Below, one piece after another: positions 10,248 through 34,056 of a stretch of DNA of 64,000 nt. Position 1 is the stretch's first letter, and each line of letters begins with the position of its first letter. Below the pieces are notes generated by a model. The model saw nothing but the letters and a program-made list of their open reading frames with translations, did no database searches and was not told the DNA's origin. The stretch is taken from contig JBAZTV010000003.1 in assembly GCA_041661765.1 (NCBI GenBank), positions 79,914 through 143,913 of the forward strand. Direction: 5' to 3'. Source of the DNA: Candidatus Shapirobacteria bacterium (GTDB lineage Bacteria; Patescibacteriota; Microgenomatia; UBA12405). Position numbers and translations under genes: made by a program.

Positions 10248-10330
10248 GGAGGGGTGCTCCGAATGGTAAGGAACTTGTTTTGAAAACAAGCGTCAGTAAT
10301 GACATGTAGGTTCGACTCCTATCCCCTCCG
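10248..10330 (+). tRNA. tRNA-Ser (anticodon UGA), with long variable arm
   Basis: Acceptor ggagggg/cccctcc, anticodon stem cttgt/acaag, loop tttgaaa, long variable arm gtcagtaatgacatg, T-loop ttcgact. Confidence 0.75.
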
Positions 10331-10544
10331 CATTATGTCTATCTTTCCATGTAATCTTTACACTATGGTTAGAAACCCCTTACCTTCCCTTGTATTTTTT
10401 CGAAAATTTCAATTTATCGTTTTGACGGCCTGTAACACACGAAATTTTAGCGAAATTCAGTTCAAATAATGCCTAAGGTGTTGGTAAATAGTGTTTATAT
10501 CAAAATAATTTTTTATAAAAATTTATTATTGAAATTTTTTAAAA

Positions 10545-10553
10545 TGTTATAAT
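10545..10553 (+). promoter_or_regulatory. extended -10 promoter (TGtTATAAT) for the TIR-like/caspase-like cassette
   Basis: tgttataat sits 35 nt upstream of ATG 10588, with a weak TTGAAA upstream. Confidence 0.4.
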
Positions 10554-10587
10554 GGAGACAATATTGATTGTTATATTTTAATAAAAA

Positions 10588-10998
10588 ATGAGTAATCCTA
10601 GAGCTTTTATTAGTTTTGATTTTGACCATAATGAAACGGAAAAATATTTATTTATTGGTCAATCTAAAAATTCCAAAACACCTTTTGATATAGAAGACTG
10701 GTCTTCTAAGTCATCTCTACCTCAAAATCAGTGGGAAAGAATTATTGAAGATAAAATCAATAAATGTAACTTAATGATAGTTTTAGTTGGAAAAAATATG
10801 GCTTCAGCTTCAGGGGTAGCAAAAGAGATCTCTTTTGCTAAAGAAAATAACGTGCCATTTTTTGGAGTTTATGTTGACGATGCAAATACTTCTAATAACT
10901 TACCGTCTGATTTAGCTAGAAACAGAACAACAAACTGGGATTGGGACAATATTGCTTCTGCTATCAAACAAATGATGGAAGAAGGAAAAAATAAATGA
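10588..10998 (+). CDS. TIR-like domain protein (DUF1863 / MTH538-like TIR)
   Basis: N-terminal AFISFDFDH (the TIR beta-A 'FISY-' strand), then LMIVLVGKNMASASGVAKEISFA..NVPFFGVYVD, which matches the TIR-like pattern [S.S.WV..EI..A...PII.V]. Confidence 0.6.
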   Translation: MSNPRAFISFDFDHNETEKYLFIGQSKNSKTPFDIEDWSSKSSLPQNQWERIIEDKINKCNLMIVLVGKNMASASGVAKEISFAKENNVPFFGVYVDDANTSNNLPSDLARNRTTNWDWDNIASAIKQMMEEGKNK

Positions 10999-11933
10999 GA
11001 AAAGCATTAATTGTTGGAATTAACGATTATAAAGATTGTCCACTTTTAGGATGTGTTAATGATGCATCTTCTCTTTCTAGTATTCTTTCAAGTAATGGTG
11101 ATGGTTCCCCAAATTTTGATGTAATGCTTAAAACTGATATAAAAAATAAATCTGAATTAAAAACTCATATAAAAGAGCTATTTGAAGGAAATGTTGAAAC
11201 AGCTCTATTTTATTTTTCTGGTCACGGTTTTTTAAATAATCTTGGTGGATATATAGTAACACCAGATTATCAACCAAACGATGAAGGTGTCTCTATGAAT
11301 GAAATATTAACTTTTGCCAACCAATCGAAAGCACAAAATAAAATTATTATATTAGATTGTTGTCATTCTGGATCATTCGGATCTCCTCCTGAACAATCCG
11401 TTAGTATTTCTCAAATTACAGAGGGTTTGACTATACTTACTGCTAGTAAAGAAAATGAATCTGCTGTTGAAGAAAACGGACATGGAATTTTTACTAATTT
11501 ATTGTTAGGTGCATTAAGAGGTGAAGCATCAGACCTAATGGGTAATATTACTCCTGGAAGTGTATATTCCTATATCGACCAAGCTTTAGGCCCATGGGAT
11601 CAAAGACCAATTTTTAAAACTAATATTACTAAATTTACACCAATAAGAAATATATCCCCATTAATTCCACTTGATATCCTTAGAAAGATAACTTTATATT
11701 TTCCTACACCTCAAGAGGAATTTAAATTAGATCCTTCTTTTGAAGATTCAGATAAAAATGCCGATCTAAATAATGTTGAAATTTTTAAAAACTTACAAAA
11801 ATTTGAGAGAAATGGATTAGTAATACCTGTTGGTGAAGATTATATGTATTATGCTGCAATGAAATCAAAATCTTGTAAATTAACAGCCTTAGGTTGGCGT
11901 TATTGGGCATTAGTAGATAAAAATAGAATTTAA
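10995..11933 (+). CDS. caspase-like (peptidase C14 / CHAT-type) protein with about 150-aa uncharacterised C-terminal domain
   Basis: ALIVGINDY...L.GCVNDA, His in FYFSGHG and Cys in IILDCCHSG: a canonical caspase His-Cys dyad in the correct order and spacing. ATGA start/stop overlap with the TIR-like gene. Confidence 0.7.
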   Translation: MRKALIVGINDYKDCPLLGCVNDASSLSSILSSNGDGSPNFDVMLKTDIKNKSELKTHIKELFEGNVETALFYFSGHGFLNNLGGYIVTPDYQPNDEGVSMNEILTFANQSKAQNKIIILDCCHSGSFGSPPEQSVSISQITEGLTILTASKENESAVEENGHGIFTNLLLGALRGEASDLMGNITPGSVYSYIDQALGPWDQRPIFKTNITKFTPIRNISPLIPLDILRKITLYFPTPQEEFKLDPSFEDSDKNADLNNVEIFKNLQKFERNGLVIPVGEDYMYYAAMKSKSCKLTALGWRYWALVDKNRI

Positions 11934-11934
11934 T

Positions 11935-13275
11935 TTATTTTATATACAATCTCTTGTTGTGCAATGTAAATTTCGTTTTTATAGCTGATAATACTTGTTG
12001 CCTCTCCTCTACTGTCCCCACTTTTAAGGTATGAACTAGATATTCTTTAACCATATTTTTATCAATATGATTAAAGGCATCATAATCTATTTCTTTTAAG
12101 TTTCCACTTATATATTCTTCATTTAAAACTTCTGTTCTAAGTCGATGAAATCTATCAATATCTTTTTTAAGTTGATGGGCTAATTCAATTTCATTTAGTT
12201 TTAATTCATCAATGTGAGCCATTAATTGTTTAATTAAATCTTCTTCAGTAATATAAGGTTCGCTACATTGGTAATCTATTGATCTAGAGCAGTGATAATA
12301 AACATGTTTTCTAGCATCACCATTTAGAAGTTTCCGATATCTCTCCTCTCCTATTACTGAAGCCCCACAAGAACTACATTTACATAAATGTTTAAATGGG
12401 AAAACATTTTTGTTCCATTCTTTAGCTGGACAAATAAGTTGATATTGAACCTTATCAAATATTTCTTTAGTAATTAATGGTTCGTGATTTCCCTTATATT
12501 TCTTACCATCAAAACTAAATTCACCATAATAAAATGGATTTTTCAAAATGGCATAGATTTTACTTAAAGCAATTGGTTTACCACTTCTGGTAGTAAATCC
12601 AATATCATCCAACCATATTTTTAATACCCTACCACTGTAACCTCTTTCTGATACTTTAGTAAACATTAGTTTTACAGTTGGTGCTCTTTCTTTATCAATC
12701 TCTACATAACTAATTCTATTTTCATTCATTATATTTATATAACCTACAGGAGCCATATTAGGTCGCCATCCAGCTTCACATTTGGCTCTAAGCCCTCTTT
12801 TTACATTAATACCCCTATTATCATTTTCTAGCTTGGCTTGAGAGCATAAAATCATTAGTAAAAACTTTTCATTTGGGTTATTGGAAAATGATTGAGAAAA
12901 AGTCCGAATGGTTTTTAATTTTCCCTGATCCATTAGATCTACTAAGGTTCCAAGATCACCTGCATTTCTGCTCAGTCTATCAGGTGCCCAAGTTAAAATG
13001 GCATCAAATTCTCCACTTCGAATATCTATTAAAAGTTTATTAAAGACTGGTCGAAGCCCTGATGATTTGGCCGAATGACTTTCTTGTCTAACTTCTTTGA
13101 TAATTAATCCATCTCTATTGGCTAAATCCTTCATTTCCTTAATCTGGGAATCGATCGACATGGCTTGTCGCTCATCAGATTCGGTTGATTTACGAGCATA
13201 AAGACAATATTTTGTTTGCTCAATTTCCTGTATCTTTCCATCTTTTTCATTATTCATGATGGAACTATACCGCAA
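11935..13275 (-). CDS. large serine recombinase (resolvase/invertase N-domain + recombinase domain + Zn-ribbon)
   Basis: CLYARKSTESDERQAMSIDSQ (catalytic Ser in YxRxST), GEFDAILTWAPDRLSRN, and C-terminal CKCSSCGA..YYHC zinc ribbon. Confidence 0.85.
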   Translation of the reverse strand: MRYSSIMNNEKDGKIQEIEQTKYCLYARKSTESDERQAMSIDSQIKEMKDLANRDGLIIKEVRQESHSAKSSGLRPVFNKLLIDIRSGEFDAILTWAPDRLSRNAGDLGTLVDLMDQGKLKTIRTFSQSFSNNPNEKFLLMILCSQAKLENDNRGINVKRGLRAKCEAGWRPNMAPVGYINIMNENRISYVEIDKERAPTVKLMFTKVSERGYSGRVLKIWLDDIGFTTRSGKPIALSKIYAILKNPFYYGEFSFDGKKYKGNHEPLITKEIFDKVQYQLICPAKEWNKNVFPFKHLCKCSSCGASVIGEERYRKLLNGDARKHVYYHCSRSIDYQCSEPYITEEDLIKQLMAHIDELKLNEIELAHQLKKDIDRFHRLRTEVLNEEYISGNLKEIDYDAFNHIDKNMVKEYLVHTLKVGTVEERQQVLSAIKTKFTLHNKRLYIK

Positions 13276-13306
13276 CCATTACAGTAGTCTAGAAGATGAT
13301 TATTAT

Positions 13307-14794
13307 TTAATAAATATCAGACAAGTGACGAGAACCTCGATCATAAAAATTACCTGTCGTAAGGACATACATAGCTGGTGTTGGCTGATTATCTAACTCT
13401 AAAATTTTTAAAATTAATAAAGAAAATGCATCGGCAAGGTCGTCGTGTTTTTCGATTCCAAAACCAACTAATTGAGAAATCAATTCTTCGGCTCCTTTTT
13501 TAGGAAACAAAATTTTTCCTTGTTCAATTAAATGGGTAACTAAAGCTAACCTAGATCTTTTATCCTGCCCATTTACCTTTACTCCTTCACAATGAATATT
13601 ACGACTATTAAGATGTTGAATAATTGATTGTTGGTAACCAACATCTTCGACAAAAATTTTTGATTCTCTACCTAAAATTGCAGATATTTCTTCTATTTTA
13701 GCTACTGTCTGAGGAAAAGTTAGTCTTTGATTTACTGGATTTGGATAAATATATATTTCAAGTTTTTCTTTTCTTCCAAAAACTTTGGCAGTAATCATAG
13801 AGGTAAAATCAGCAGATTCTTTTTGAGAAATTGCCAAATCAATTCCAGTTCCAACCATACGAAAATCTCTTTTATCTCTTTCAATCCCTTCATAATATTT
13901 AATCCATTCTGGATGAACTAATCTATCAGCATCGGAAATAATTTTTAGTAAATACTCGCGATACCAAGCCGAATCTGTCCCTATAGATGCCTTTAATTTA
14001 TTGATAGCTTCCATATTGGGAAATTTTCCAGGCCAAGCAATAATTTCATTATCATCTATTAAAGGATAAGCAAGAAATTTACTATCACTTTGTTTATTCT
14101 TTTCCATCATGGCTTTAAGTCTCATTAATAAACAATCTTCGTGGAGTAAATTGCCGACGATTATAAACTTAGTTGAAATATCACCTATTGGTAGAATCTC
14201 ACCTGTTAACCATTGAAAAGTTTTATCTCTACTTTCTCTGGTTTTTATACTATTAAGGTCTTCAACATCATCACATACAACTAAGTCTGGTCTATATTGA
14301 CCATGTCGAACTCCTCTAATACTTTGTTCAGTTGAGGCAATAGTAATTCGAGCATCAAAATTAGAAAGCACTATTGAAGTAGCACCCCATTCGTCACTAA
14401 CTTCCTGAAATGGACCAATATCATTTTTTAATAATTCATTAGTTTCCAACTCTCTTTTAATATTCGATAAATGTAATCTAGCTTGAGATTGAGTCTGACT
14501 AACAATTAATACAAATTTCTTTTGTTGACAACCAGTTATTGCCCAAATCGGATAAGACAAACTCATAATAGTAGACTTACTTGAACCACGAAATGCAACT
14601 AATACCGCCATTTTTAAATTTATATCTTCAGTAATAGAAAACATTTCATTGTGAAATTGAGCAAAAGGATAACTAATATAATGACTAAAATAGATAGTAA
14701 AAAACCAAAAATGACTGTTTTTGGCTAAGGCTCTTCGAACGGACCTTTTCTTTTTTATTTCAATTAGTTCATTTTCGTTTAATTTTTGAATCAT
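13307..14794 (-). CDS. phage terminase large subunit (Terminase_6-like ATPase + RNaseH-like nuclease)
   Basis: Walker A-like VAFRGSSKST, Walker B LVVCDDVEDL, and C-terminal nuclease acidic residues (GTGIDLAIS..., EKHDDLADAF). Confidence 0.75.
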   Translation of the reverse strand: MIQKLNENELIEIKKKRSVRRALAKNSHFWFFTIYFSHYISYPFAQFHNEMFSITEDINLKMAVLVAFRGSSKSTIMSLSYPIWAITGCQQKKFVLIVSQTQSQARLHLSNIKRELETNELLKNDIGPFQEVSDEWGATSIVLSNFDARITIASTEQSIRGVRHGQYRPDLVVCDDVEDLNSIKTRESRDKTFQWLTGEILPIGDISTKFIIVGNLLHEDCLLMRLKAMMEKNKQSDSKFLAYPLIDDNEIIAWPGKFPNMEAINKLKASIGTDSAWYREYLLKIISDADRLVHPEWIKYYEGIERDKRDFRMVGTGIDLAISQKESADFTSMITAKVFGRKEKLEIYIYPNPVNQRLTFPQTVAKIEEISAILGRESKIFVEDVGYQQSIIQHLNSRNIHCEGVKVNGQDKRSRLALVTHLIEQGKILFPKKGAEELISQLVGFGIEKHDDLADAFSLLILKILELDNQPTPAMYVLTTGNFYDRGSRHLSDIY

Positions 14795-15207
14795 TTTTGT
14801 TTTTCTTCAATTAATTCCGGTAAATTTTCAGGTAAAACTGAAGCAAGTTTTAAGGCTTTCATCACTAAAGCTTCTTGTTCTGGAGTTAATTGTTCATCAT
14901 CATGTTTCAATTTGGCGGTTACTTCTATTTTGGTGGCATAAGCTTGATGATGGTTTTTTAACCAAAAAATTATCGCAGTTAAATTTTTATCCCTAATAGC
15001 ACTCATTAATTGAGATTCAGCCATATCATTTACTAATTCATTACCATCCAAAAGAGCTTCGTCTACTTGAGTAGAAAAATTTTCATCATCTTTTTTCCAG
15101 CGATAAAAAGTGGCCCGACCAACACTTACTTTTTCACAAGCTATTTGAATAATTGGTGTTTTTTTTAATTGTTCAATTAATAATTGTTTGTTTTTGTCAG
15201 TTTTCAT
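14791..15207 (-). CDS. terminase small subunit-like HTH protein
   Basis: IACEKVSVGRATFYRWKKDDENF helix-turn-helix. Sits immediately upstream of, and overlapping, TerL. Confidence 0.45.
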   Translation of the reverse strand: MKTDKNKQLLIEQLKKTPIIQIACEKVSVGRATFYRWKKDDENFSTQVDEALLDGNELVNDMAESQLMSAIRDKNLTAIIFWLKNHHQAYATKIEVTAKLKHDDEQLTPEQEALVMKALKLASVLPENLPELIEEKQK

Positions 15208-15935
15208 ATTTTTTTTAGTTTTTTAAAACGATCAATAATTACTTGACAATATTCTGGATCTATTTCAACCATTAGACATTTTCTTTTTGTTTGTTCACAA
15301 GCAATCAAGGTCGACCCCGAACCACCAAAACAGTCATAAACATAATCACCAATTTGGGAACTGTTTAGGATTAAATGACGAAGAAGTGAAATTGGTTTCA
15401 TGGTTGGGTGAAGTGGACTTTTATTAGGTTTTGGAAAAGCTAAAACACTTTTATCTTTACTTTTAAAAAACTGATGAGTACCATACCAACCATAAACTAT
15501 TAATTCATGTTGAGGCAAGTAATCCATTCTTCCAATAACTGCATGATTTTTGACCCAAATTAATAACTGACAAAATTTAAAATTCGAGTCATCTAAAGCA
15601 TTTTTTAAAGCAAACAACATTCGATCAGAATTAAAAATATAGTAGGTATTTTTGGGTGACAAAAACGGTTTAACAATCTCTAACCATTGCTGAGTAAATT
15701 GTTTATACGATTGTTCAGATTGAACCTGGTCGTTGGCAATTATTTTTCTATCTTTTTTTGACTTTGCAAAGCAATTTTTACTCTCAACATAAGCAACACC
15801 ATAAGGAACATCTGTTAATATTAACTTGATTTTTTTATCTGCTAATAATTTTTCTACAGATGATTTATCAGTGGCATCACCACACAAAAGTAGATGATCT
15901 CCGAGAGCAATTAAGTCTCCTTTTTTAATTAACAT
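15204..15935 (-). CDS. DNA methyltransferase (N6-adenine/N4-cytosine, beta class)
   Basis: LILTDVPYG (D-[PV]PY motif IV), then C-terminal FGGSGSTLIACEQTKRKCLMVE (motif I FxGxG). Confidence 0.8.
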   Translation of the reverse strand: MLIKKGDLIALGDHLLLCGDATDKSSVEKLLADKKIKLILTDVPYGVAYVESKNCFAKSKKDRKIIANDQVQSEQSYKQFTQQWLEIVKPFLSPKNTYYIFNSDRMLFALKNALDDSNFKFCQLLIWVKNHAVIGRMDYLPQHELIVYGWYGTHQFFKSKDKSVLAFPKPNKSPLHPTMKPISLLRHLILNSSQIGDYVYDCFGGSGSTLIACEQTKRKCLMVEIDPEYCQVIIDRFKKLKKI

Positions 15936-17223
15936 ACTTTACCTCCTGACCAGTTAATTTTTTATAACGGGAAACAATTAGGTCACAAAATATTGGTTCA
16001 TATTCAACCATTAAACATTTCCGTTTTAATTGTTCACAAGCAATAAGTGTAGAACCTGATCCACCAAACAAATCAACAACAGTATCGCCAATATTAGTAC
16101 ACCTTCTCAGGGCTCTTTCGTGAAGTGTTGGGCTTTTTTCAGTTGGATGTTCATAATCACCTCCGGGTAATCTTTTAACTAACCAAATATTGAGTAAATC
16201 CAAAATGTCGTCTATTGTCCTATTTCCTGAGCCAATTTCTTTGTTTAAAATTTCATTTAAGTTTTTCGGATTTTCCGAAATTGTTGGTTTACCAATTACC
16301 CCATAGATACAAGCTTCGTAACTTTTATTAAAAGCAATGTTAGGTGTAGGTGAAAAACCATTTTTAATCCATAAACAAACCCTTTTGTTTTCTATTCCGA
16401 TTTCTTTATATAAATCTTGAATTAGGCCGATATGATTTTCGTCGTTCCAATAAAAAATATGACAATCTGGCTTGGAGATTGTTAAAACATTTTGAATTGT
16501 CTTTTTCAAAAACTCTTTATATTCATCATCAGTTTTATTATCATTGGTTTGTCCACCATATTTTCCCTTACCACCAATTCCTTTATTGTAATCCAAAGAA
16601 ATATTATAGGGTGGGTCACAATAGACCATAGATACGGACTTATTTGATGTTAATTTTTCAACAACTTTTAAATCAGTACTATCTCCACAAACCAATAGAT
16701 GTTGACCAAGTTGGATAATGTCTCCTAATTTTGTTTTTGGAATTTTTATTTTTTCTAATTCTTTTTCTGTGTCAAAATTATCATCCTCAGTTTCAAGATT
16801 TTCATCCCAAATTTTAGATAAATCATTATTGTCAAAACCAATGTCCATCAGCATTTCAATTTGAAAATTTTTTAGAAGTTCAAAATTCCAATCACCAGTG
16901 TTGCGATTTAATCTAAGGTTCAATTCTTTTTCCTTTTCAACATCTGGGACATTGACATAAACTACTGGCACCTCTGCAAAACCTAACTGTTTTGCTATCT
17001 CTAATCTAAAATGTCCACCAATAACAATATTCTTACGATTTATTGCAGAATTCGCAATAATGGGATCTATTAACCCAAATTTTTTAATACTTTGCTTTAG
17101 TCCGCTTATTGCTTCATCAGACCATTTTCTTGGATTGTATGATGATGGTTTTAAATCTTTGACAGGTATATAGATGACTTTGAGTTGGGTTCTTTGATTC
17201 ATATAAACCAAAGTTACCACCAC
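15925..17223 (-). CDS. ParB-like nuclease domain fused to DNA methyltransferase (phage-type ParB-MTase)
   Basis: N-terminal ParB-N (IPVKDLKPSSYNPRK...IGGHFRLEIAKQLG), VYCDPPYN (DPPY), and C-terminal FGGSGSTLIACEQLKRKCLMVE, almost identical to the downstream MTase. Confidence 0.8.
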   Translation of the reverse strand: MVVTLVYMNQRTQLKVIYIPVKDLKPSSYNPRKWSDEAISGLKQSIKKFGLIDPIIANSAINRKNIVIGGHFRLEIAKQLGFAEVPVVYVNVPDVEKEKELNLRLNRNTGDWNFELLKNFQIEMLMDIGFDNNDLSKIWDENLETEDDNFDTEKELEKIKIPKTKLGDIIQLGQHLLVCGDSTDLKVVEKLTSNKSVSMVYCDPPYNISLDYNKGIGGKGKYGGQTNDNKTDDEYKEFLKKTIQNVLTISKPDCHIFYWNDENHIGLIQDLYKEIGIENKRVCLWIKNGFSPTPNIAFNKSYEACIYGVIGKPTISENPKNLNEILNKEIGSGNRTIDDILDLLNIWLVKRLPGGDYEHPTEKSPTLHERALRRCTNIGDTVVDLFGGSGSTLIACEQLKRKCLMVEYEPIFCDLIVSRYKKLTGQEVKYVN

Positions 17224-17254
17224 ATAAATCAGGTGTATAAGGCATTAATGAAGT

Positions 17255-18001
17255 CTAATTAATGCCAGTTTTTTGTTTATATCTTTTAATAAAGCTACCA
17301 ACATCCTCATATCCATAATCTTTGCCATATTTTTCTGATAAAACATCTGCAATTTTTTCATAGGACATTCCTGATTGTTTTAATTTATATGCTTCACAAT
17401 CTCTTTCAAACATTTTAATCGGTTGAAATTTATCAGTAGTTTTATCCCCTAATTTTTTTTGTTCAAGCATTACATATGGCCAGATGTTTTTTATATCCTC
17501 CAATGTAGTGTTTGCATTTAATTCGAGTGATAATTTTCTAAATTCATCTTCCCATCCAAATACTAGTGATAAATTACCAATTGGTGGAGACATATTATCT
17601 ATGTCATTAAATAAAAGATACATTTTGATTGAATTTTCCCAACTTTTAGATAACTTATATTTTTTGATTAAGCTTAAAATATCATTTCTAAAATTATTTA
17701 TGGGTACTTGATCATTAAATTTTTTATTAGCCTGTTCTTTTTCTGTCCAGTTACCATCTTTGGCCAATTTTTCTTCAAGATCTCTTTCTTGAGACCAATT
17801 ATCATCAGAGTATTTTCCCGACACTTCGTTTAACCAATCTTGCCATTCATGACTTTTTTGTTCATTATCAAAACCTTTGGTTTTAATATTCCATTTTTCC
17901 CTTAATTCTAAAATGTCATGTAAAAAATCTGATCTGGAAGTTAAAATTAGAATTTTTTGCTTTATTCTTTGGCTCTGTTTTTTAAAATAATCCTTGGTCA
18001 T
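17255..18001 (-). CDS. hypothetical protein (phage-remnant block), possible C-terminal HTH
   Basis: 248-aa ORF co-oriented with the MTases; no recognised catalytic motif. Confidence 0.35.
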   Translation of the reverse strand: MTKDYFKKQSQRIKQKILILTSRSDFLHDILELREKWNIKTKGFDNEQKSHEWQDWLNEVSGKYSDDNWSQERDLEEKLAKDGNWTEKEQANKKFNDQVPINNFRNDILSLIKKYKLSKSWENSIKMYLLFNDIDNMSPPIGNLSLVFGWEDEFRKLSLELNANTTLEDIKNIWPYVMLEQKKLGDKTTDKFQPIKMFERDCEAYKLKQSGMSYEKIADVLSEKYGKDYGYEDVGSFIKRYKQKTGIN

Positions 18002-18163
18002 GTATATATTATATGAAAAAAATTATAAACTTTATTGAAATTTGGATCTTTACCGATTTTTAGCTCTAACTTTTAGTATATAATGTAATCAAATGTTTGC
18101 TAATAATGGGTATAAATTATTAGACTTCTAATCTTTTAAAAAATGGGTAATCAATAATAATAA

Positions 18164-21100
18164 ATGAGTATAAATAACCTCCCAAAACAAATTCTTAACT
18201 ATTTTGCCACTTTTACTGAAACAAGATTTAATTTCCGACGACTAATTAACTATAAATGGACTAATAATGAACTAACCCTCGATTTTTCTTTATTTCCTGA
18301 ATTTCAAAATCAAATTCTAGAAAAAATAAAAACTGGAGATTTGTCTCCCGTTACTATTATTCAAGATAAATACACTGTTGTTATTCCAAAAGAGCAAATT
18401 ATTTCTGAAGTACAAAAAATTGTTTCTAAAAAATTAGATAGTTCTTATCTTAATCAGTCTATTAGTAATGAAGAATCTAATATTAAAGATGAATCGGAAG
18501 ATAATTCAGAAAATATTGACGAACAAAAGGAATTGGCAAAAAAAGAAGCCTTGCGTTTATACAATCTTGAACTCCGACGTCAATTTGAAACCAGTTTAAA
18601 CAATCTTCAAGAAAAATTAACTAACCAGAAAAAAGACGAATTACACATTGAACATACTCCACCGTCAATTTTTGGCATAACTAATTATATAAATCAGAAC
18701 TTTGAAAAAATTAAGCGTCTAGCACAAGACTATATAGATTCTGAATCATACATTAATTCAATAAAGGATTATTTTGAAAAAAATGTTGACGACGTTGTTA
18801 TTTATGACCTTTTTTACAACTTACAAAAATATGCCGACTTTGCTCAACTTGGAACTTTGTATTTATTTTTTCACAATTTAGAGAAAAGTTCTGAAAGTTA
18901 CCCTGTTTATTTTGTTGAGGCAGAATTTAAAAATAATACCACTGAGATTACTTTATCTTTTCCAAGAAATTTAATTTTACTTAATACTCCAGCCATCAAT
19001 TATTTTAAATTTGATAGTGTATTAACCATACCTCGAGCCTCCTCTCCCGCATTAGCAAAATCTCACTTAGGCGGTATTGAATCATTTTTCCAAAATCAAT
19101 ATGGTTTTCAAACACCATTTGTTTTAGAATCTGCCTTTGATCCAATTACTCATGCAAAAGAAGAATACCCACAAATAAAAAGTCGAATTGGGTTACAAAC
19201 TGTAATAAACGAAGATAAAAAATTGCTTGATTATTCAGAACTTATGACTAATCTTGAGTTAGGCGAAGATAGTAAATTTTCTGGATTTATTGATCAATAT
19301 ATTAGAGGTACTGTTCCAAATCATCAAGAAGAAGTTGATCAAGTATTTAAAGACAATTTTCCATTAGAATCTCCAAAACGATATATTTCAGATAGTCCAA
19401 TTCCATTAAACAATTCACAAAAAAGAATTCTTTTGGCTCTCGCTAATCAAAAAAATAATATTATTGTTGTTGATGGCCCTCCTGGCACTGGAAAATCTCA
19501 CACTATTGCGGCTTTGACTTATTGGGCTAATGAACAAAAAAAATCAGTAGTCGTCACTTCGCACAAAAAAGAAGCTTTAGACGTTATTGATCGAATGTTG
19601 ACAGATAAGTTTAAAAGTCTACATCCTCAAGCAAAACCTTCTATTGTCAGAATGGATAAAGAAACAGGTTCTGCTAATAATTTACCTAATACTTTGCAGA
19701 CAAGTGTTATAAATGCGGCCAATGAAAGAAATCTAAACTTTAATTACCAAGCATTAAAAAGTGATACCGACAACCTTGAGCAAAAATTAATTACTACTGT
19801 TGAAAATAAACTTAAACAAAATATAGATTATCAACAACAAATTAAGGATTTTGTTAATTTAAATGTTATAGAAACTGAACTTTGTACCGACTCAAATATT
19901 TCGACAGTTATTTCTTCCATCACTACCCCTAAACAAATTACTGACTTTGCAAAATTAAAAGGGTTTTTAGACTCTGACACTTTAAATATTTTTTCAGATA
20001 TTAGTTTAGATGAATATCAATTTATTCTGGAACATCAACAAAATATTCCTGATTTTATTGATGCTTGCGAAAAACTGAATCAAACTTCAGCAGACATAAT
20101 TGATGAAAAAATAAATATTAATGAAATTCCACAGAAATTTCTTGATTTAATAGTTTTACTTCAAAAATATTTTAAACCCAATATTAGTCTTGGAAAACTA
20201 ACAATTAAAGATACTGTAGGTGGAATATTTCCTAAAATTTTTGGAAAAGGACCTAAGGAAAATCAATTAAAAGAATTATTATCGCAATTAAAATTGCTGG
20301 AACATAAAAGTAATTTAAACGATATTGCTCAATATATTGGAAAGGACGTGAACTCTATAACTATTGAGGAAATTTCTTTAAGTATTCAAAAAATACAATT
20401 CGCTCTATCAATTAAACCTTATCTAAATTTAATTTCATCTTATAAATCTCTTCCTAATAATAGTCAAAAAAATATCACCCAAATTTTTGACACAATGAAG
20501 AAATTTAGTCAGGCACCACAAATATTTGATCCGGAGATTTCTTCTGTATTAACCCAACTTTATGCAACTTATGGATCAATTTTAGAAACAGTTGATGTGG
20601 TTGAAGATAATTTAAGTAGTTTATCAAAACTATTTAGCACTGATAATTTGGCTACTAAAATTTGGCAATGGATCCAACTTCACTCCCAACTGTCACAAAA
20701 AGAAAATTCTTTGTCACTTAATAAAAGTGATGTTGAGACTTATTTTAGACTTCAACAAAAAGAGGTAGAAAATATTAATGATCAAAGATTAAAGGATCTT
20801 AATAATCATTTGGGTGAAATTGCTCGTATAAAAGTTTCTTATGAAGGTGGTAAAAGATTTTCTATGGATGAAGCCAAAGTGTTACTCTCTTCTGTTTCTT
20901 GTATTATTGCTGAACCATCAACAATTTCTAAATTTTTCCCAATGCAAGAGGATTTAATCGATGTCCTTATTATTGACGAAGCCTCTCAAGTTTCTATTGC
21001 CGATTCAATCTCTCTTATTTTAAGAGCTAAACAAGTAGTTATATTCGGAGATGAGTATCAGTACGGTGCTGTCAGTGCCCAAAATGTCAGCTCTAAGTAT

Positions 21101-22414
21101 TCGACCAGTTACTTTACTGAAATAGTTTCAGCTTATGCTGATGATTATCAAACAGCTGTTTCAGAAAAAGCGAAGAAAGAATTAGTAGACGAAATATCCA
21201 AAGACATTAACCCCGACGAACAACAAAGCGATACTCTTCTTAAACCACAAGATGGCACAATTCTTTGGCTTAAAACCTTTGATATCCGCACTTCAACATT
21301 AACTTTTGCTAAGGCTATTGCCAATTACAGCACATCTCTTAAAGAACATTTCCGTAGTTTTCCAGAAATTATTGGTTATTCTAATGAAACATTTTATAAA
21401 ATTGCCCAAATGGAACTTTTGGTTAATCGAATCAGAACTAAACCAATTGGTGAAGTGTTGCAATTTATTAAAGTTGACTGTCAAGGTAATGCTGGAGCTA
21501 ATGTAAATTTAGATGAAATTGAAGCAATCGGTAATGATATTCAAAAAAGACTTGATAATGGTTTTATTGGAAGTATTGGTATTATAACTTCATTTAAAGA
21601 ACAACAATCCCGAATGGAACAGTATTTAAATGAGCGTTTTAATATGCCAATTTTGACCCGTGATCATAAAATAGCAATTTGGTTTGTGGGAGATGTACAG
21701 GGCGAAGAAAGAGATTTAATCTATTATTCTTTTGTTGAGGCTAAAGAATTAAACAGTGCTAATTTAGCTAGTATTTATCCAGTAATTGGTGGTACCGCCG
21801 ATAGTATTCGTAGTTTAAAAATGCAACGTCTAAACGTTGGTTTTAGCCGTGCCAAAGATACGATGGTTTTTGTACACAGTCAACCAATTGAGCAATTTAG
21901 TAATACTCGTTTAGGTGATGCTTTAAAGCACTATCATCACGAATTAGAAATTAACCAAGCTAATGATTTCTTTATTGAAGATGAGTCAGTTTTTGAATCT
22001 CCAATGGAAAAGAAAATTTATAGTTTATTGACACAAACAAAATTTGTTCAAGATAATCGTGAACATTTAAAAATTATTCCTCAGTTTGATATTGGAAAAT
22101 ATATTGCTCGTGAATATGCTGTTTCAATTCCTAAATACCGAACAGACTTCTTAGTTTCTTATTCAAATGGTGGCAAAGAAAAAGTGTTGATTTTGGAATA
22201 CGATGGACTAGAATTTCATTTTAAAAATCCATCTGAAGTTGATCATTTAAATTTTTCTCAAGAATACATTGATTATGATATTTCTCGTCAATTAGAACTT
22301 GAAAGTTATGGTTATCACTTTTTACGCCTCAATAAGTTTAACCTTCGACCTCAAAATTCTGGTGAAACTGAAGTTGATGTCTTGAACAATTTATTGATGG
22401 ATCGATTAAAATAA
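18164..22414 (+). CDS. 1416-aa Upf1/DNA2-like SF1 helicase with about 420-aa unknown N-terminal domain and C-terminal restriction-endonuclease-like (DUF559/Vsr-like) domain
   Basis: Walker A IIVVDGPPGTGKSHT (~aa 440), Walker B VLIIDEASQV (~aa 935), AAA_12-like GDVQGEERDLIYYS and R-finger region. C-terminal ...KVLILEYDGLEFHFKN..., a PD-(D/E)xK-type E-x-D...H pattern typical of DUF559 tails. Confidence 0.8.
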   Translation: MSINNLPKQILNYFATFTETRFNFRRLINYKWTNNELTLDFSLFPEFQNQILEKIKTGDLSPVTIIQDKYTVVIPKEQIISEVQKIVSKKLDSSYLNQSISNEESNIKDESEDNSENIDEQKELAKKEALRLYNLELRRQFETSLNNLQEKLTNQKKDELHIEHTPPSIFGITNYINQNFEKIKRLAQDYIDSESYINSIKDYFEKNVDDVVIYDLFYNLQKYADFAQLGTLYLFFHNLEKSSESYPVYFVEAEFKNNTTEITLSFPRNLILLNTPAINYFKFDSVLTIPRASSPALAKSHLGGIESFFQNQYGFQTPFVLESAFDPITHAKEEYPQIKSRIGLQTVINEDKKLLDYSELMTNLELGEDSKFSGFIDQYIRGTVPNHQEEVDQVFKDNFPLESPKRYISDSPIPLNNSQKRILLALANQKNNIIVVDGPPGTGKSHTIAALTYWANEQKKSVVVTSHKKEALDVIDRMLTDKFKSLHPQAKPSIVRMDKETGSANNLPNTLQTSVINAANERNLNFNYQALKSDTDNLEQKLITTVENKLKQNIDYQQQIKDFVNLNVIETELCTDSNISTVISSITTPKQITDFAKLKGFLDSDTLNIFSDISLDEYQFILEHQQNIPDFIDACEKLNQTSADIIDEKININEIPQKFLDLIVLLQKYFKPNISLGKLTIKDTVGGIFPKIFGKGPKENQLKELLSQLKLLEHKSNLNDIAQYIGKDVNSITIEEISLSIQKIQFALSIKPYLNLISSYKSLPNNSQKNITQIFDTMKKFSQAPQIFDPEISSVLTQLYATYGSILETVDVVEDNLSSLSKLFSTDNLATKIWQWIQLHSQLSQKENSLSLNKSDVETYFRLQQKEVENINDQRLKDLNNHLGEIARIKVSYEGGKRFSMDEAKVLLSSVSCIIAEPSTISKFFPMQEDLIDVLIIDEASQVSIADSISLILRAKQVVIFGDEYQYGAVSAQNVSSKYSTSYFTEIVSAYADDYQTAVSEKAKKELVDEISKDINPDEQQSDTLLKPQDGTILWLKTFDIRTSTLTFAKAIANYSTSLKEHFRSFPEIIGYSNETFYKIAQMELLVNRIRTKPIGEVLQFIKVDCQGNAGANVNLDEIEAIGNDIQKRLDNGFIGSIGIITSFKEQQSRMEQYLNERFNMPILTRDHKIAIWFVGDVQGEERDLIYYSFVEAKELNSANLASIYPVIGGTADSIRSLKMQRLNVGFSRAKDTMVFVHSQPIEQFSNTRLGDALKHYHHELEINQANDFFIEDESVFESPMEKKIYSLLTQTKFVQDNREHLKIIPQFDIGKYIAREYAVSIPKYRTDFLVSYSNGGKEKVLILEYDGLEFHFKNPSEVDHLNFSQEYIDYDISRQLELESYGYHFLRLNKFNLRPQNSGETEVDVLNNLLMDRLK

Positions 22415-22418
22415 CTTT

Positions 22419-24443
22419 ATGACTCAAATTAAACTAACCATTGAAGAAAAAGCCCAAATTATTGAAGCACTCAATCAAGATTTAGAACCATCAGCTGATT
22501 TACTACCTAAAATATTTCCTGGTACCGCTGAAAAATTTGATGTAGCCTCTCTTGATCGAGCTAAAATTCCTACCCTTGAATATGCTGGTAAAAGAACTAA
22601 AGCAGCAATCCTAGCTGAAGGTACTGCCGGTATTGGTGCAGCCCCTCTTCAAACTGTCCGTTGTTTTGGAAATGCCACTGAAAATGATTGGAAAAATTTA
22701 ATTGTTCAAGGTGACAATCTTCAATTTTTAAAAACTTGTTATAAAAATACTGATCCATTAATTATGGATAAGATTAAGGGTAAAGTTAAACTAATTTACA
22801 TTGATCCACCATTTGCAACTAAAAGTGATTTTGGAGGTAAAGATGGAGAATATAGTTATACCGATAAAGTTGATCGAGCCCACTTCCTTGAAACACTCCG
22901 TGAACGCCTTATCTATCTTCGTGAACTCCTCGCTGACGATGGTTCAATCTATGTCCATTTGGACCAAAAAATGAGCCATTATGTAAAAATAACAATGGAT
23001 GAGATATTTGGAAAAGATAATTTTAGAAATGAAATTGTTTGGACTTACAACGGAAAAGGATTGGCTAATGCTAGAAGTGGTTATGTAAAATACTTTGCCA
23101 ACATTTTATTTTATTCTAAGTCAAATAAAACCGAAATAAATAATAAAATTGATAAAGTTTCTGATTCTGTCATTCAACGTTTTGGAAGATATTTAAATGA
23201 ATTTAATCAAATTTCATTTGCATCTTTGAAAAAAGGAAATGAAAAATCAGAATTAGAAAAAAGTAGAAATAGATTTATTAAAGAATTTAATAGAGAACCT
23301 GAAGATGATGATATTGCGGTTGATTATAGTAAGGGTATGTTTTTAAAAGATATTTGGGATGATATACCGATAGTAAGAGAGAATAAAAAATATTCTGAAT
23401 ATCAAAATTATCCAACACAAAAGCCCGAACTCTTATTGGAAAGAATCGTGACTGCTTCATCTAATGAGGGTGATATTGTAATGGATTGTTTTTCGGGGTC
23501 TGGGACAACAGTTGCTGTGGCTGAAAAATTAGGGAGAAGATGGATTGGATGTGACTTTGGAAAACATGCAATTTATACAATTCAAAAAAGAATTCTTAAT
23601 ATTGCGGAAAGTAAAAAACTTGGAAAAGACTTAAAGGCTGGTGAAAAACATGGATTAAAACCAAAACCATTTTGTGTTGTGTCATCTGGAGCTTATGATT
23701 TTTCCCATGTTATGGATTTACGCAAAAATAAAGATACTTATATTGATTTTGTCTTGGCTCTTTTCCAACTCGTCCGTGACAATGAAAAATCAGCTAAATT
23801 TCGATTATCAAATATTTACTCTCTAAAAGATGGTAATCCAGTCGAAGTTTATCCTGTTTGGGACGATCAGTATCTTAAAGATGTTCGTATTGATGAAATT
23901 TATTTACAAGGAGTGATTGATCAAGCCGGTGGTCGGTTGCAGGGTGATTATTACATTATTACTCCTGAATCGTGTGCCAATATTGGTGATACTACTCTTA
24001 AAAACCAAGATAATAAGGATGTTAATTTTAAAATTCTTTCCTTCCCTTATAAAATTTTAGAGGCTATCTCTCAAAAACTAACAATAGAAGAACAACCTAG
24101 TTCTTCCCAAAATATTAATAATTTAGTTACTTCTACTTCTTTTTACTTTAATGAAGACGTTGAAATTGAAGTCGTTAAAACAGATAGTGGTCTTAAAATA
24201 ACTAAATTTGATAGCAAAATATTAGATGGTGCTGGTAATCGTTTTGAAGGAATTTCTGGATTAGCGATGTTACTTATCGATCTTAATTATGTTTCTAATA
24301 AGCCATTTGATATGGATGTGGCTGTATATGCCAAAGAAATTGGTGAAGATGGAACTTGTAAAGTTGATGAATTAACTCCAAGTGTGGGTGTTATTGCTAT
24401 TGATAAACACGGTAATGAAAGTAAACCGTTTCAAATAAAATAA
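22419..24443 (+). CDS. mod: Type III restriction-modification methyltransferase (Mod) subunit
   Basis: LIYIDPPFAT (motif IV DPPF) precedes MDCFSGSGTTVAVAEKLGRRWIGCD (motif I): the beta-class order of Type III Mod. 674 aa, with a central variable (target-recognition) region. Confidence 0.8.
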   Translation: MTQIKLTIEEKAQIIEALNQDLEPSADLLPKIFPGTAEKFDVASLDRAKIPTLEYAGKRTKAAILAEGTAGIGAAPLQTVRCFGNATENDWKNLIVQGDNLQFLKTCYKNTDPLIMDKIKGKVKLIYIDPPFATKSDFGGKDGEYSYTDKVDRAHFLETLRERLIYLRELLADDGSIYVHLDQKMSHYVKITMDEIFGKDNFRNEIVWTYNGKGLANARSGYVKYFANILFYSKSNKTEINNKIDKVSDSVIQRFGRYLNEFNQISFASLKKGNEKSELEKSRNRFIKEFNREPEDDDIAVDYSKGMFLKDIWDDIPIVRENKKYSEYQNYPTQKPELLLERIVTASSNEGDIVMDCFSGSGTTVAVAEKLGRRWIGCDFGKHAIYTIQKRILNIAESKKLGKDLKAGEKHGLKPKPFCVVSSGAYDFSHVMDLRKNKDTYIDFVLALFQLVRDNEKSAKFRLSNIYSLKDGNPVEVYPVWDDQYLKDVRIDEIYLQGVIDQAGGRLQGDYYIITPESCANIGDTTLKNQDNKDVNFKILSFPYKILEAISQKLTIEEQPSSSQNINNLVTSTSFYFNEDVEIEVVKTDSGLKITKFDSKILDGAGNRFEGISGLAMLLIDLNYVSNKPFDMDVAVYAKEIGEDGTCKVDELTPSVGVIAIDKHGNESKPFQIK

Positions 24444-24444
24444 T

Positions 24445-27333
24445 ATGGAAGATAAAAAATTTACCAAACCAAAGGGTAGACGATTTAACACTGTTGATCG
24501 AATCAATTTATCTCAGCATGTTTTAAATATAAATCTAAAAAAAAGTAGTCGTAAAAAATTTAATTTTAATGAAATTGAAGATTTTGTTAGGGCTATTGCT
24601 GACGGCAGACAATATCAATATGATGCCATCAGGGATGTAATGACCTATCTGTGGGGTGGTGGTTATCAAGATGTAACTGAATTAGCTAAAGAAAATTTTA
24701 CAGTAAATGAACATTTACGAGAAAAATTTGGAAATGAAGAATTAATGCTTGGTAATTTACCTCTCCCCGATCGTCTATCTGGAGTGGTTCATATGGCCAC
24801 CGGTACGGGTAAATCATATATTATTTATGCGGTAGCTTATTTGTCTATTGTTATGGGTTTGACTAAAAGAGTATTGGTGCTAGGACCATCCTCAACTATT
24901 ATTGAAGAAGGTTTGCGAGATAAATTTCAAAAATTTATGGCTCGTGATGATTGGAATAAAAAACTTCCCAAAGAATATCAAGGTAAGGCTATTGAATTAT
25001 TAAAAAATAATGATGTTATTGAAGACAACAGTATCACTATTGAAAATATTAATGCTATCTATACTGTCGGTGGTATTCGTGACACTTTATTTAAAGGAGT
25101 TAATGAAGTTTTAGTTTTAGGAGATGAAATTCATCATGCTTATTCTCATTTAAACTTCAATCAAACCCAAAAAAGACTGGAATTAGATCAAAATGTTGAT
25201 GAAAATGTTGGTAAAGATAGCGATGAAAAATCTGAGAGATTATGGATGAAGTTTTTAAGACAATATCCTGAAATTACTAGACATATTGGTTTTACAGGTA
25301 CTCCATATAATCAGGATAATTATTTTGCTGATGTTATTTATGATTACAATATTAGAGCGGCTATAAATAACAAATATATTAAAGATATTAATCCAATTAT
25401 TGGAACTGAATCTGATCAAGGTGATGTTCAATGGACTACTGAAAAAAGATTTGAAGTTGTTTATGAAAACCATCTCGATAATTCTAATAAATATTCCTAT
25501 ACAAAAAATGATGTTCGCAGGGTTAAACCAATTACTGTTTTTTATTGTCCTACTCGAAATAATGCTCAATCAAAAACAGAAGAATTTATTCGCTTTTTAA
25601 TTAAAAGAGAAAAAGAAGTTCTTCATTCCACTTTATCTGATGCAGAACTAGACCAAAAGATACGCCAAAAGGTAATTTGTGTTATTACGGGTATTACAGA
25701 ATCTACATATAAAAACCAACTTGACCATGTTGAAGAAACTGATCCAACTAAGATTGGAGGTTTAGTTGAATTTATTTTTTCTGTCGGTAAATTACTTGAA
25801 GGTTGGGATGTTGACAATGTGTTTCAGATCGTCCCAATGGAAGAAAGAATTTTTAATTCAAAATTATTAATATCACAAGTTTTGGGTCGTGGTTTAAGAA
25901 TTCCTCGTTGTTTAAAACCTGTTGATATCGCCACTAATTACCCAATGTTGACGGTTACTAATCATGAAAAATTTGCTGACAAAATTAAAGAAATTCTTAA
26001 TGCTGTTATCAACTCTGATATGTTCATTGTTTCTGAACCATTGGAAATTAAAGACGATCCAAATTGGCGAGGAAAATATCACTTTTCTCTTTTTAATTTA
26101 AATTATCTTTCTGGTGAAAAATTTGAAGATGCTCCAGTAGAACCAAAACAATTACAAAATAGACAATTAATTTTAGAAAAGTTTGATCTAAAAGAAAATT
26201 TAACTATTTTTTTTGATAAAGGTAAAAGAGAATACCGTTTAAAAAAACAAACTGTCACATTAGACTCAATTGTTGATTCTTTATATAGACGTTTTAAAGG
26301 TAGAGAATATGAAGAAATTCGGTTTGATTTTGGAAACGGAGAAGAAACTCGATGTCCTACTGAAGATGAAATTAGAAATACTATTCTAGTAGCAATGGAA
26401 AAAGCCGGAATTTCTAAGGATGGTTTGGCTGATGATAATAAAAAACAAATTGATTTATATTTTAATCAATTTTTACCAAAAGGATCAAAAATTCGAATTC
26501 CTATCAATGTGACTGGTAATGTTTTTCCTATAAGTAGTCAAAAAATTGAACGTAGTAGTCTTCGGGTTGGTGAATTAGAACGAGACGCAACTGCTTTTAT
26601 GAGTGAAAATTATCAACAAGAAGTTGATGAAAAAACCAAAGCGTTATTAAAATATATACAAGAAAATAGAAAACAATTATTAAATGAAGGTCAACAAATG
26701 CTTGGATTTACTGATCCAAATCAGCTATTGGTTAAATATCAAGATAATGTTAAATCGCTAATTAATGGTGATCCCCGACCACCTTACATCGTAACAAATT
26801 CATCATTTAAAACACCTCAAAGCGTGGTTTTAGTTTCATATTATCCAGAAAAAGAATTTTCATTTAGATTAATTGAAAATAGTTTATATCTCGATTCTTG
26901 GATTAAATCTCCAGATAAAGGATTTTATTCAATTGAATATGAATATTGGAAAGGCGGAAAAGATAGAGTATTAAGAAGTTTTAACCCTGATTTTTTTATA
27001 AAAATTGATCTCGATAGGTATATTAAAACTTTAAAGGAAAAAGGTGAAAAAGACAATTTAAAAAATCTTATAGAACTACAAGAAAAAGGAATTGAAACTA
27101 TTATTAAGGTAGTCGAAATAAAATCTGATGAGGATGATGATGAAGCTACTCCAGCTAAAGCTGAAAAAGCCAAAATACATTTTAATTCTCTGAATCAAAA
27201 ATTGAGCGAGAGTAATCCAATAAACTTTGACAAAAAATACCAGTCAGAATTAAAACAATTTTATGTTTTTGATTTATTAAAACCAAACGGATTTATTGAA
27301 TGGTTTTCTAAATTAAAAACTGGAAGTTTATAA
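24445..27333 (+). CDS. res: Type III restriction enzyme (Res) subunit, SF2 DEAH helicase + C-terminal nuclease region
   Basis: Walker A HMATGTGKSY and DEAH-type motif II LVLGDEIHHA, with helicase motifs downstream. Start is 1 bp after the Mod stop, the typical mod-res operon. Confidence 0.8.
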   Translation: MEDKKFTKPKGRRFNTVDRINLSQHVLNINLKKSSRKKFNFNEIEDFVRAIADGRQYQYDAIRDVMTYLWGGGYQDVTELAKENFTVNEHLREKFGNEELMLGNLPLPDRLSGVVHMATGTGKSYIIYAVAYLSIVMGLTKRVLVLGPSSTIIEEGLRDKFQKFMARDDWNKKLPKEYQGKAIELLKNNDVIEDNSITIENINAIYTVGGIRDTLFKGVNEVLVLGDEIHHAYSHLNFNQTQKRLELDQNVDENVGKDSDEKSERLWMKFLRQYPEITRHIGFTGTPYNQDNYFADVIYDYNIRAAINNKYIKDINPIIGTESDQGDVQWTTEKRFEVVYENHLDNSNKYSYTKNDVRRVKPITVFYCPTRNNAQSKTEEFIRFLIKREKEVLHSTLSDAELDQKIRQKVICVITGITESTYKNQLDHVEETDPTKIGGLVEFIFSVGKLLEGWDVDNVFQIVPMEERIFNSKLLISQVLGRGLRIPRCLKPVDIATNYPMLTVTNHEKFADKIKEILNAVINSDMFIVSEPLEIKDDPNWRGKYHFSLFNLNYLSGEKFEDAPVEPKQLQNRQLILEKFDLKENLTIFFDKGKREYRLKKQTVTLDSIVDSLYRRFKGREYEEIRFDFGNGEETRCPTEDEIRNTILVAMEKAGISKDGLADDNKKQIDLYFNQFLPKGSKIRIPINVTGNVFPISSQKIERSSLRVGELERDATAFMSENYQQEVDEKTKALLKYIQENRKQLLNEGQQMLGFTDPNQLLVKYQDNVKSLINGDPRPPYIVTNSSFKTPQSVVLVSYYPEKEFSFRLIENSLYLDSWIKSPDKGFYSIEYEYWKGGKDRVLRSFNPDFFIKIDLDRYIKTLKEKGEKDNLKNLIELQEKGIETIIKVVEIKSDEDDDEATPAKAEKAKIHFNSLNQKLSESNPINFDKKYQSELKQFYVFDLLKPNGFIEWFSKLKTGSL

Positions 27334-27392
27334 TTCAAAGTTAACTAATACAAAAAATTAGAGGTATTGCAGAAAAGATAATTGAATAAATA

Positions 27393-28910: not shown

Positions 28911-28947
28911 AATAGTTAAATTATTTTAAATTTTTTATTAAATTAAA

Positions 28948-29733: not shown

Positions 29734-29762
29734 TAAATTTTGTTTAGTGCTAACATCAACTA

Positions 29763-33868: not shown

Positions 33869-33879
33869 TATTATAACTT

Positions 33880-34056
33880 ATGAAATTTATATTTATTATT
33901 ATTTTTATAATTGGTTTTTTGTTTATTAATGCTGCACATATTCCAGCATGGTTTTTAAGTGGAGAAAAACCAACACACCCTGGTTGGAAAATATATGGAA
34001 TAATTGGAGTACTAATTTGGATCTTACTTCTAATACTTGGAAATACTATTTTATAA
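33880..34056 (+). CDS. 58-aa two-TM small membrane protein; not in the ORF track
   Basis: Encodes MKFIFIIIFIIGFLFINAAHIPAWFLSGEKPTHPGWKIYGIIGVLIWILLLILGNTIL. Lies between two diverged copies of the upstream gene's 3' end. Confidence 0.3.
   Translation: MKFIFIIIFIIGFLFINAAHIPAWFLSGEKPTHPGWKIYGIIGVLIWILLLILGNTIL

Follow-up and report, generated by a model that had tools for sequence, protein, structure and literature searches.

The 64,000-nucleotide stretch of DNA analyzed here (the window) comes from contig JBAZTV010000003.1 of a Candidatus Shapirobacteria genome (GenBank assembly GCA_041661765.1, positions 79,914 to 143,913), and carries next to a group of tRNA genes a two-gene cassette for a TIR protein together with a caspase-like protease. 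An original prediction made from the letters had described two open reading frames (ORFs) joined by an ATGA overlap, and both were recovered in this arrangement. The cassette and its parts are as follows.

10332..10587, plus strand: AT-rich junction and region upstream of the cassette
10588..10998, plus strand: thsB-type TIR gene, 136 amino acids, predicted signal synthase with catalytic glutamate E80
10995..11933, plus strand: caspase-like gene, 312-amino-acid effector
10995..11624, plus strand: caspase-like protease domain of the effector (residues 1-210), with catalytic H77 and C123
11625..11933, plus strand: C-terminal domain of the effector (residues 211-312), without a named family and proposed as a sensor of N7-cADPR (N7-cyclic adenosine diphosphate ribose)

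A 4-nucleotide ATGA stop/start overlap joins the TIR frame (10588..10998) to the caspase frame (10995..11933), and no further ORF in the window's ORF list belongs with them. As read from the DNA, the TIR and caspase-like genes are a translationally coupled two-gene operon with all predicted catalytic residues intact, and the cassette promoter is presumed to lie within 10332..10587. The cassette ORFs are real genes and not chance reading frames, because their products have thousands of homologs and because the ratio of nonsynonymous to synonymous substitution (dN/dS) against the closest relative is 0.08 for the TIR gene and 0.17 for the caspase gene, values that indicate purifying selection.

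In all likelihood this pair is an intact and ordinary type IV Thoeris, a known defense system and not a new one. Type IV Thoeris pairs a TIR protein with a caspase-like protease and has been characterized both genetically and biochemically (Rousset et al., bioRxiv 10.1101/2024.10.24.620036; bioRxiv 10.64898/2025.12.03.692087 cites it as Science 387:510-516, 2025). Upon infection the TIR protein makes N7-cADPR, the caspase-like protease cleaves promiscuously after arginine, and abortive infection results (10.1101/2024.10.24.620036). Both active sites are required, with defense abolished by PsTIR E79Q and by PsCaspase C129A (10.1101/2024.10.24.620036). A phage counter-defense directed against the system, TadIV-1, is also known (PMC13243611). 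The published MacSyFinder rule calls for a short TIR gene, matching either PF08937 or PF13676, that is separated by no more than one gene from a gene for a caspase-like protease. At the window locus the two genes are adjacent, lie on the same strand and overlap by 4 nucleotides, and the TIR protein matches PF08937 (ThsB_TIR). The catalytic TIR glutamate, the protease cysteine and histidine, full-length caspase homology and TIR-caspase co-occurrence were likewise found. The original prediction had placed a TIR protein with a protease effector outside the well-characterized Thoeris layouts, a statement now outdated in that this layout is type IV Thoeris, and had put the pair forward as the undescribed system of the window, which does not hold because both proteins are full-length homologs of type IV Thoeris components. 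Its broader expectation of TIR signaling or abortive infection with a protease effector, borne on a mobile element as cargo against phages, agrees well with type IV Thoeris. The prediction was to fall if either fold were missing, the catalytic dyad were not conserved or the genes did not co-occur; both folds were found, the dyad is conserved, and the genes co-occur at no fewer than 77 of 80 loci. Two profiles from PHROGs v4 match the cassette, phrog_6988 the TIR protein and phrog_18397 the caspase (residues 1-311 against 1-320 of 321, E=1.2e-89), yet both are labeled 'unknown function', and the caspase model of PADLOC-DB v2.0.0 (2023) is named only 'caspase'. Pipelines built on these releases keep flagging such loci as novel because the labels lag behind the publication of type IV Thoeris.

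The effector exceeds the Pfam curated cutoff for Peptidase_C14 (PF00656; 70.5 bits against 21.4, E=2.1e-19) and matches the PADLOC 'caspase' model (8.8e-22), while its only other Pfam matches, to Peptidase_C13 and Glyco_transf_88, both fall below the cutoff. An AlphaFold2 model of the full protein, built with 45 homologs (predicted local distance difference test, pLDDT, 80; predicted template modeling score, pTM, 0.74), retrieves MALT1 paracaspase, caspases 1/7/9/11 and yeast metacaspase with a Foldseek probability of 1.0 and template modeling (TM) scores of about 0.5-0.7, bearing out the caspase fold that had been expected. The His/Cys dyad is intact, again as predicted, in the motifs FSGHG (H77) and DCCHSG (C122/C123), and of 81 sequences at least 95% keep H77, C122 and C123, as they do many residues of the C-terminal domain; R230, K265, Q268, Y303 and W304 are examples of family-invariant positions in that domain. 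C123 is the probable nucleophile, because it aligns with C130, the single cysteine of 'DSCHSG' in a Pseudomonas aeruginosa relative; H77 aligns with H82 of the Escherichia coli protein and H84 of the P. aeruginosa protein. Since the caspase fold of the model reaches about residue 210, the additional C-terminal module comprises some 100 amino acids and not the approximately 150 first estimated. Assignment to the EACC1-type caspases (NCBIfam NF047832) was rejected, with a score of 101 bits against a cutoff of 140 and a match restricted to residues 3-198, so that the effector is related to that family but not a member of it. The C-terminal domain retrieved nothing in a profile search against the PDB or in a Pfam scan at E<=10. 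In the full-length model its topology is helix-strand-helix-strand-helix, and it looks winged-helix-like. PDB sequence searches with the two cassette proteins gave no close solved relative, the only match being to the N-terminal 50 residues of yeast metacaspase (E=0.004).

For comparison with the characterized systems, the full PsTIR gene and 399 nucleotides of EcTIR were taken from Table S2 of the type IV Thoeris paper. A gene matching the EcTIR fragment at 100% identity occurs in 14 complete E. coli genomes, and in E. coli strain 165 this EcTIR-identical gene is followed, after a gap of 10 nucleotides, by a gene for a 321-amino-acid 'caspase family protein'. Residues 1-312 of the window caspase align with residues 1-321 of the strain 165 protein at 44% identity (E=1e-97), the C-terminal domain included, and identity over the full length is 47% to a plasmid-borne P. 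aeruginosa caspase whose adjoining TIR is 70% identical to PsTIR. Within the C-terminal domain the values are 47% (E. coli) and 39% (P. aeruginosa). The window caspase is no greater an outlier than the references are, because the E. coli and P. aeruginosa caspases are only 46% identical to one another. At the N-terminus PsCaspase reads MRKALVVGI and the window protein MRKALIVGI. Readings that would place the effector elsewhere fared poorly. Types I and II Thoeris were rejected on the Pfam scan, as the effector has neither the SIR2-SLOG nor the Macro and transmembrane domains. A gasdermin-caspase system was set aside with no gasdermin gene adjacent, the neighbors being tRNA-Ser upstream and a serine integrase downstream, and CHAT and CRISPR-linked systems with no partner genes nearby.

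The TIR protein lies above the Pfam curated cutoff for ThsB_TIR, formerly DUF1863 (36.5 bits against 21.2, E=6.6e-9), the very type of TIR-like fold first suggested, whereas its score for TIR_2 (PF13676), 23.5 bits, is under the cutoff of 28. The PADLOC ThsB models match it as well (6.9e-10). A STALD/SLOG match in the Pfam scan (E=0.025, below the cutoff) is in the TIR protein and not in the effector. Aligned over its whole length, the window TIR is 28% identical to PsTIR (E=5e-15), and PsTIR E79 coincides with E80, codon 79 being exactly the one altered in the E79Q construct; E80 is invariant among 31 homologs. Identity to EcTIR is 19%, in a weak alignment. The window TIR falls in a ThsB class of its own (136 amino acids; window-type), whose members are 62-82% identical across Patescibacteria, Bacteroidota, Bacillota, Pseudomonadota, Spirochaetes and methanogenic archaea.

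If the locus works as its characterized relatives do, phage infection would cause the TIR protein, through E80, to convert nicotinamide adenine dinucleotide (NAD+) to the cyclic nucleotide N7-cADPR. This signal would bind the C-terminal domain of roughly 100 amino acids on the caspase-like protein and switch on the H77/C123 protease. The active protease would then cut many cellular proteins after arginine, and the infected cell would be killed or arrested ahead of the release of phage progeny. We infer the N7-cADPR signal, C-terminal-domain binding, promiscuous arginine-specific cleavage and abortive infection at this locus by analogy, and binding of the ligand by the C-terminal domain is likewise put forward as a hypothesis in the type IV Thoeris paper.

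A signaling variant of type IV Thoeris, in which the window-type TIR makes a signal other than N7-cADPR or senses another phage trigger, would fit the distance of this TIR from PsTIR and EcTIR, the placing of its class outside the TIRs assayed in the type IV Thoeris papers and the fact that TIR families of other Thoeris types produce different signals. However, EcTIR and PsTIR are just as divergent from one another, yet PsCaspase reads the EcTIR product: in the published work an EcTIR-expressing strain was used to generate N7-cADPR, and PsCaspase served as the reporter activated by that N7-cADPR. The mean identity of effector C-terminal domains to that of the window protein is 54-56% whether the neighboring TIR is of the window, Ps or Ec type, and at some loci two TIR classes stand beside a single caspase. 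A shared signal is supported because the EcTIR product is read by PsCaspase despite the divergence of the TIR proteins and because the C-terminal domain does not co-vary with TIR class. Such a variant is accordingly rated unlikely. For the window-type ThsB class as a whole there is a slim chance that its members respond to another phage trigger or signal through a molecule that is not N7-cADPR, though the phage trigger could well differ.

Relatives of the window caspase were sought in one genome per species and are encoded by at least 579 species genomes from many bacterial phyla as well as archaea, the best 80 loci (L002-L081) being examined for their surroundings. One or two adjacent TIR genes on the same strand were found by tblastn at 76 of these 80. 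A further locus (L063) has a 'DVFISHKQED' TIR ORF missed by the TIR queries, so that at least 77 of the 80 are paired and the conserved gene neighborhood that had been looked for is present. Two loci, L053 and L067, are apparent orphan caspases; at L028 the upstream ORF of 365 amino acids has no Pfam match and may be a divergent signal generator. The TIR genes of the 80 loci are of window, PsTIR and EcTIR type. Window-type TIRs occur at 28 loci, are 62-77% identical to that of the window and usually lie 0-27 nucleotides upstream of the caspase gene. Two TIR genes at one locus are frequent, with Ps-type genes both up- and downstream at 12 and a Ps-type together with a window-type gene at six. 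Judged from these neighborhoods, one conserved caspase effector apparently accepts any of at least three or four TIR classes as its partner.

The same neighborhoods bear on whether the two proteins act together at all. Stand-alone TIR NADases and gasdermin-cleaving caspase-like proteases do occur in bacteria (a matter of general knowledge, and raised in the discussion of the type IV paper), and the window TIR might on that basis be a stand-alone NAD+-depleting effector beside an unrelated protease that processes, for example, a gasdermin or toxin. The genes, however, overlap by 4 nucleotides, and the same overlap or a gap of at most 27 nucleotides is kept at most window-type loci; TIR and caspase co-occur at 77 or more of the 80 loci and travel as a unit of two genes whose homology is confined to 10580-11937. 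Moreover, the adjacent genes are those of a tRNA and an integrase and not of a gasdermin or other substrate, and the validated homolog needs both active sites for defense. Independent proteins are therefore a most improbable explanation, and a joint type IV Thoeris is favored.

Type IV Thoeris with TIRs of this class seems to have been cataloged already. Table S1 of 10.1101/2024.10.24.620036 lists Algoriphagus faecimaris DSM 23095, Methanosarcina mazei and genomes of the candidate phyla radiation (CPR; Nomurabacteria, Parcubacteria) among the carriers of type IV. The A. faecimaris caspase (L033) is 61% identical to that of the window. The M. mazei TIR P0191 has 136 amino acids, is 75% identical to the window TIR and overlaps a C14 gene by 4 nucleotides. 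Because M. mazei is listed and its P0191 overlaps a C14 gene, the window-type TIR class is very probably inside the published catalog. The window adds Candidatus Shapirobacteria (Microgenomates) to the groups in which type IV Thoeris is documented; the original catalog has entries from elsewhere in the CPR (Nomurabacteria, Parcubacteria).

The closest relative of the pair (L082), at 79% and 82% amino-acid identity, lies beside genes of a type IV secretion system (T4SS). DNA homology between this locus and the window is confined to 10580-11937, beginning 8 nucleotides ahead of the ATG and covering both genes only. Conjugative plasmids and about 25 viral contigs of IMG/VR carry further copies, and another lies between the Q and holin genes of a lambdoid prophage in E. 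coli. Carriers thus differ, from the integrase/terminase island of the window to the T4SS element of the closest relative, conjugative plasmids and the lambdoid prophage. On this comparative evidence the cassette is a self-contained, sharply delimited two-gene mobile unit that appears to move between unrelated mobile elements.

Several points weigh against reading the window locus as an ordinary, working type IV Thoeris. The window TIR shares no more than 28% identity with PsTIR and 19% with EcTIR, so that N7-cADPR is a signal that we infer for it. The caspase comparison was made through stand-ins, with E. coli strain 165 taken for strain 328 and a P. aeruginosa relative for PsCaspase itself. 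The C-terminal domain modeled alone gave a poor model (AlphaFold pLDDT 51). A promiscuous suicide protease may not behave alike in an episymbiotic CPR cell. Lastly, a scan for consensus promoters performed at chance, with 13 sites against 10.5 expected, and no promoter or terminator was assigned. This last result also favors a silent or decaying passenger without current function in this genome, as does residence in a composite island, by a phage-like module in which capsid, portal and tail genes are not recognized. Yet both ORFs are full length and keep all catalytic and family-invariant residues, and the dN/dS values (0.08, TIR; 0.17, caspase) against the closest relative speak for purifying selection. 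Decay is for these reasons very unlikely, and a functional type IV Thoeris is preferred.

Among characterized systems the cassette most resembles type IV Thoeris of Pseudomonas sp. 1-7 (PsTIR and PsCaspase), with which it shares the order of TIR then caspase, the stop/start overlap and a short ThsB-kind TIR (123 amino acids in PsTIR, 136 in the window; catalytic E79 and E80, respectively). It differs from it in that the window TIR belongs to a separate, well-conserved sequence subclass and in its host, a CPR bacterium. The system of E. coli 328 (EcTIR and EcCaspase) similarly has the His/Cys dyad and a C-terminal domain and is borne by a prophage or mobile element, but its TIR is of another class, its genes are non-overlapping and 10 nucleotides apart, and its site in a lambdoid prophage, flanked by the Q antiterminator and the holin, contrasts with the tRNA/integrase junction of the window. 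With types I and II Thoeris the shared plan is a ThsB-type TIR, an NAD+-derived signal, a separately encoded effector and abortive infection. The predicted effector of the window, in which a caspase-fold protease is joined to a domain outside the named families, contrasts with the SIR2-SLOG ThsA of type I and the Macro/transmembrane effector of type II, and the signals of those types are 3'cADPR and His-ADPR whereas N7-cADPR is published for the caspase type. Cysteine proteases of the caspase/metacaspase fold act in anti-phage cell death also as gasdermin-associated proteases and as the PCaspase of type III-B CRISPR-Cas, the latter likewise promiscuous and possibly cleaving after arginine (discussion of 10.1101/2024.10.24.620036). 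Unlike those systems, the window locus has no gasdermin, CHAT/SAVED or CRISPR genes nearby, and its protease would be expected to be activated by a small molecule and not by proteolysis. Eukaryotic MALT1, caspases and the metacaspase Yca1 share the protease core, in which they are the best structural matches, and an equivalent His/Cys dyad, but at 13-19% identity and with unrelated accessory domains (Ig3 of MALT1 versus the type IV C-terminal domain).

The cassette is embedded in a larger element whose features are listed here with those of its surroundings.

10013-10087: tRNA-Thr(UGU), ARAGORN
10131-10204: tRNA-Thr(GGU), ARAGORN
10248..10331, plus strand: tRNA-Ser(UGA), ARAGORN, its 3' end forming the left boundary of the island
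10332..40756: strain-specific island of about 30.4 kilobases (kb) at tRNA-Ser, marked by a GC-skew break, synteny breakpoints and gene content
11935..13275, minus strand: large serine recombinase (integrase) with Resolvase, Recombinase and Zn_ribbon_recom domains (phrog_95, 4.5e-63), outside the defense system
13307-14794, minus strand: terminase large subunit (phrog_38, 2.3e-72; Terminase_6C), context only
14791-15207, minus strand: terminase small subunit (phrog_309, 9.7e-11), context only

These assignments agree with the tRNA-Thr/Thr/Ser group (10013-10331) and with the phage-type recombinase and terminase neighbors that had been read from the sequence. The TIR-caspase cassette is, on the present gene assignments, the first cargo of what is evidently a strain-specific mobile island of about 30 kb at the 3' end of tRNA-Ser(UGA). 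The limits of the island were set by synteny with two Shapirobacteria relatives (L120 and L121), in which the neighboring glycosyltransferase is 89-91% identical. Synteny with L120 ends exactly at the last base of tRNA-Ser, 10331, and with L121 it reaches 10447; with the relatives it returns at 40757, with the malic-enzyme gene. Between tRNA-Ser and the malic-enzyme gene, L120 has a gap of 2.2 kb (7441-9633) holding a glycosyltransferase and unknown genes, and L121 a gap (7420-9047) holding an Mrr-type (Mrr_cat) restriction endonuclease and an HNH gene; neither gap contains a TIR or caspase gene. The interval 10332-40756 is taken to be a strain-specific island because the synteny of the relatives breaks at tRNA-Ser and resumes at 40757, with small, different gene sets between. 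The gap itself looks like a recurrent hotspot of integration and defense among close Shapirobacteria. The flanks (1-10000 and 40000-64000) have a very strong GC skew of -0.3 to -0.5, and from about 10 to 39 kb the skew is near zero or positive. The negative skew of the flanks is seemingly independent of gene strand, and in this genome GC skew alone marks foreign DNA. Comparison of 10200-10620 with the remainder of the window for att repeats, direct or inverted, yielded nothing beyond AT-rich matches no longer than 15 nucleotides, at chance frequency, among them an 11-mer near the right breakpoint (10495/40742) that is present elsewhere too. Serine integrases need no long repeats.

In addition to the cassette the island encodes methyltransferases, a Mokosh-like superfamily 1 (SF1) helicase, a type III restriction-modification system, a Cas4/DUF2779 nuclease, FtsK-like proteins and a LexA/S24 repressor. 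No capsid, portal or tail families were recognized in it. An intact prophage was rejected on this ground, half of the island consisting of defense or DNA-metabolism genes, and the island is called a composite mobile element with a phage-like module because capsid, portal and tail genes are unrecognized. In a CPR bacterium, ultra-small and episymbiotic, a suicide-type system borne on a tRNA-Ser island could affect the population in other ways than in free-living hosts.

Several other genes of the island deserve mention. Two phage-type N6/N4 DNA methyltransferases lie side by side (15204-17223) upstream of the terminase genes and probably provide anti-restriction self-methylation for the phage-like module; the second, of 432 amino acids, has a ParB-like domain fused at its N-terminus (phrog_498, 3.3e-95; phrog_620, 3.8e-32). 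The segment 18164-28910 begins with an SF1 helicase/ATPase of 1416 amino acids (PADLOC MkoA 1.6e-30, MkoC 4.8e-26, PDC-S37 4.4e-23); next come a type III-like methyltransferase at 22419-24443, a helicase of Res type at 24445-27333 and, at 27393-28910, a Cas4/DUF2779 protein. This run of SF1 helicase, type III Mod-Res and Cas4-DUF2779 genes could be one composite defense system or two adjacent ones. At 34195-35751 a 176-amino-acid ORF with FtsK_alpha only precedes a 340-amino-acid protein with an N-terminal FtsK_gamma and a partial FtsK_SpoIIIE motor, an unusual order; the T4SS element of the closest cassette relative (L082, 7328-8350) encodes a protein of the same length that is 52% identical to the 340-amino-acid one. 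The ORFs at 28948-33868 (261, 257, 717 and 423 amino acids) and at 35758-38665 (102, 234, 129, 357 and 92 amino acids) have no PHROG match, and Pfam gives nothing more than TPR repeats and DUF3142, the latter below threshold. They could be structural genes of a CPR phage that escape recognition, or genes of the element. At the tRNA genes the ORF list needs correction. The glycosyltransferase ORF given as 8846-10078 (minus strand) runs into tRNA-Thr, its true start most likely being the methionine at 9988, and the listed ORFs 10062-10283 and 10299-10469 (both plus strand) are spurious, lying over tRNA genes.

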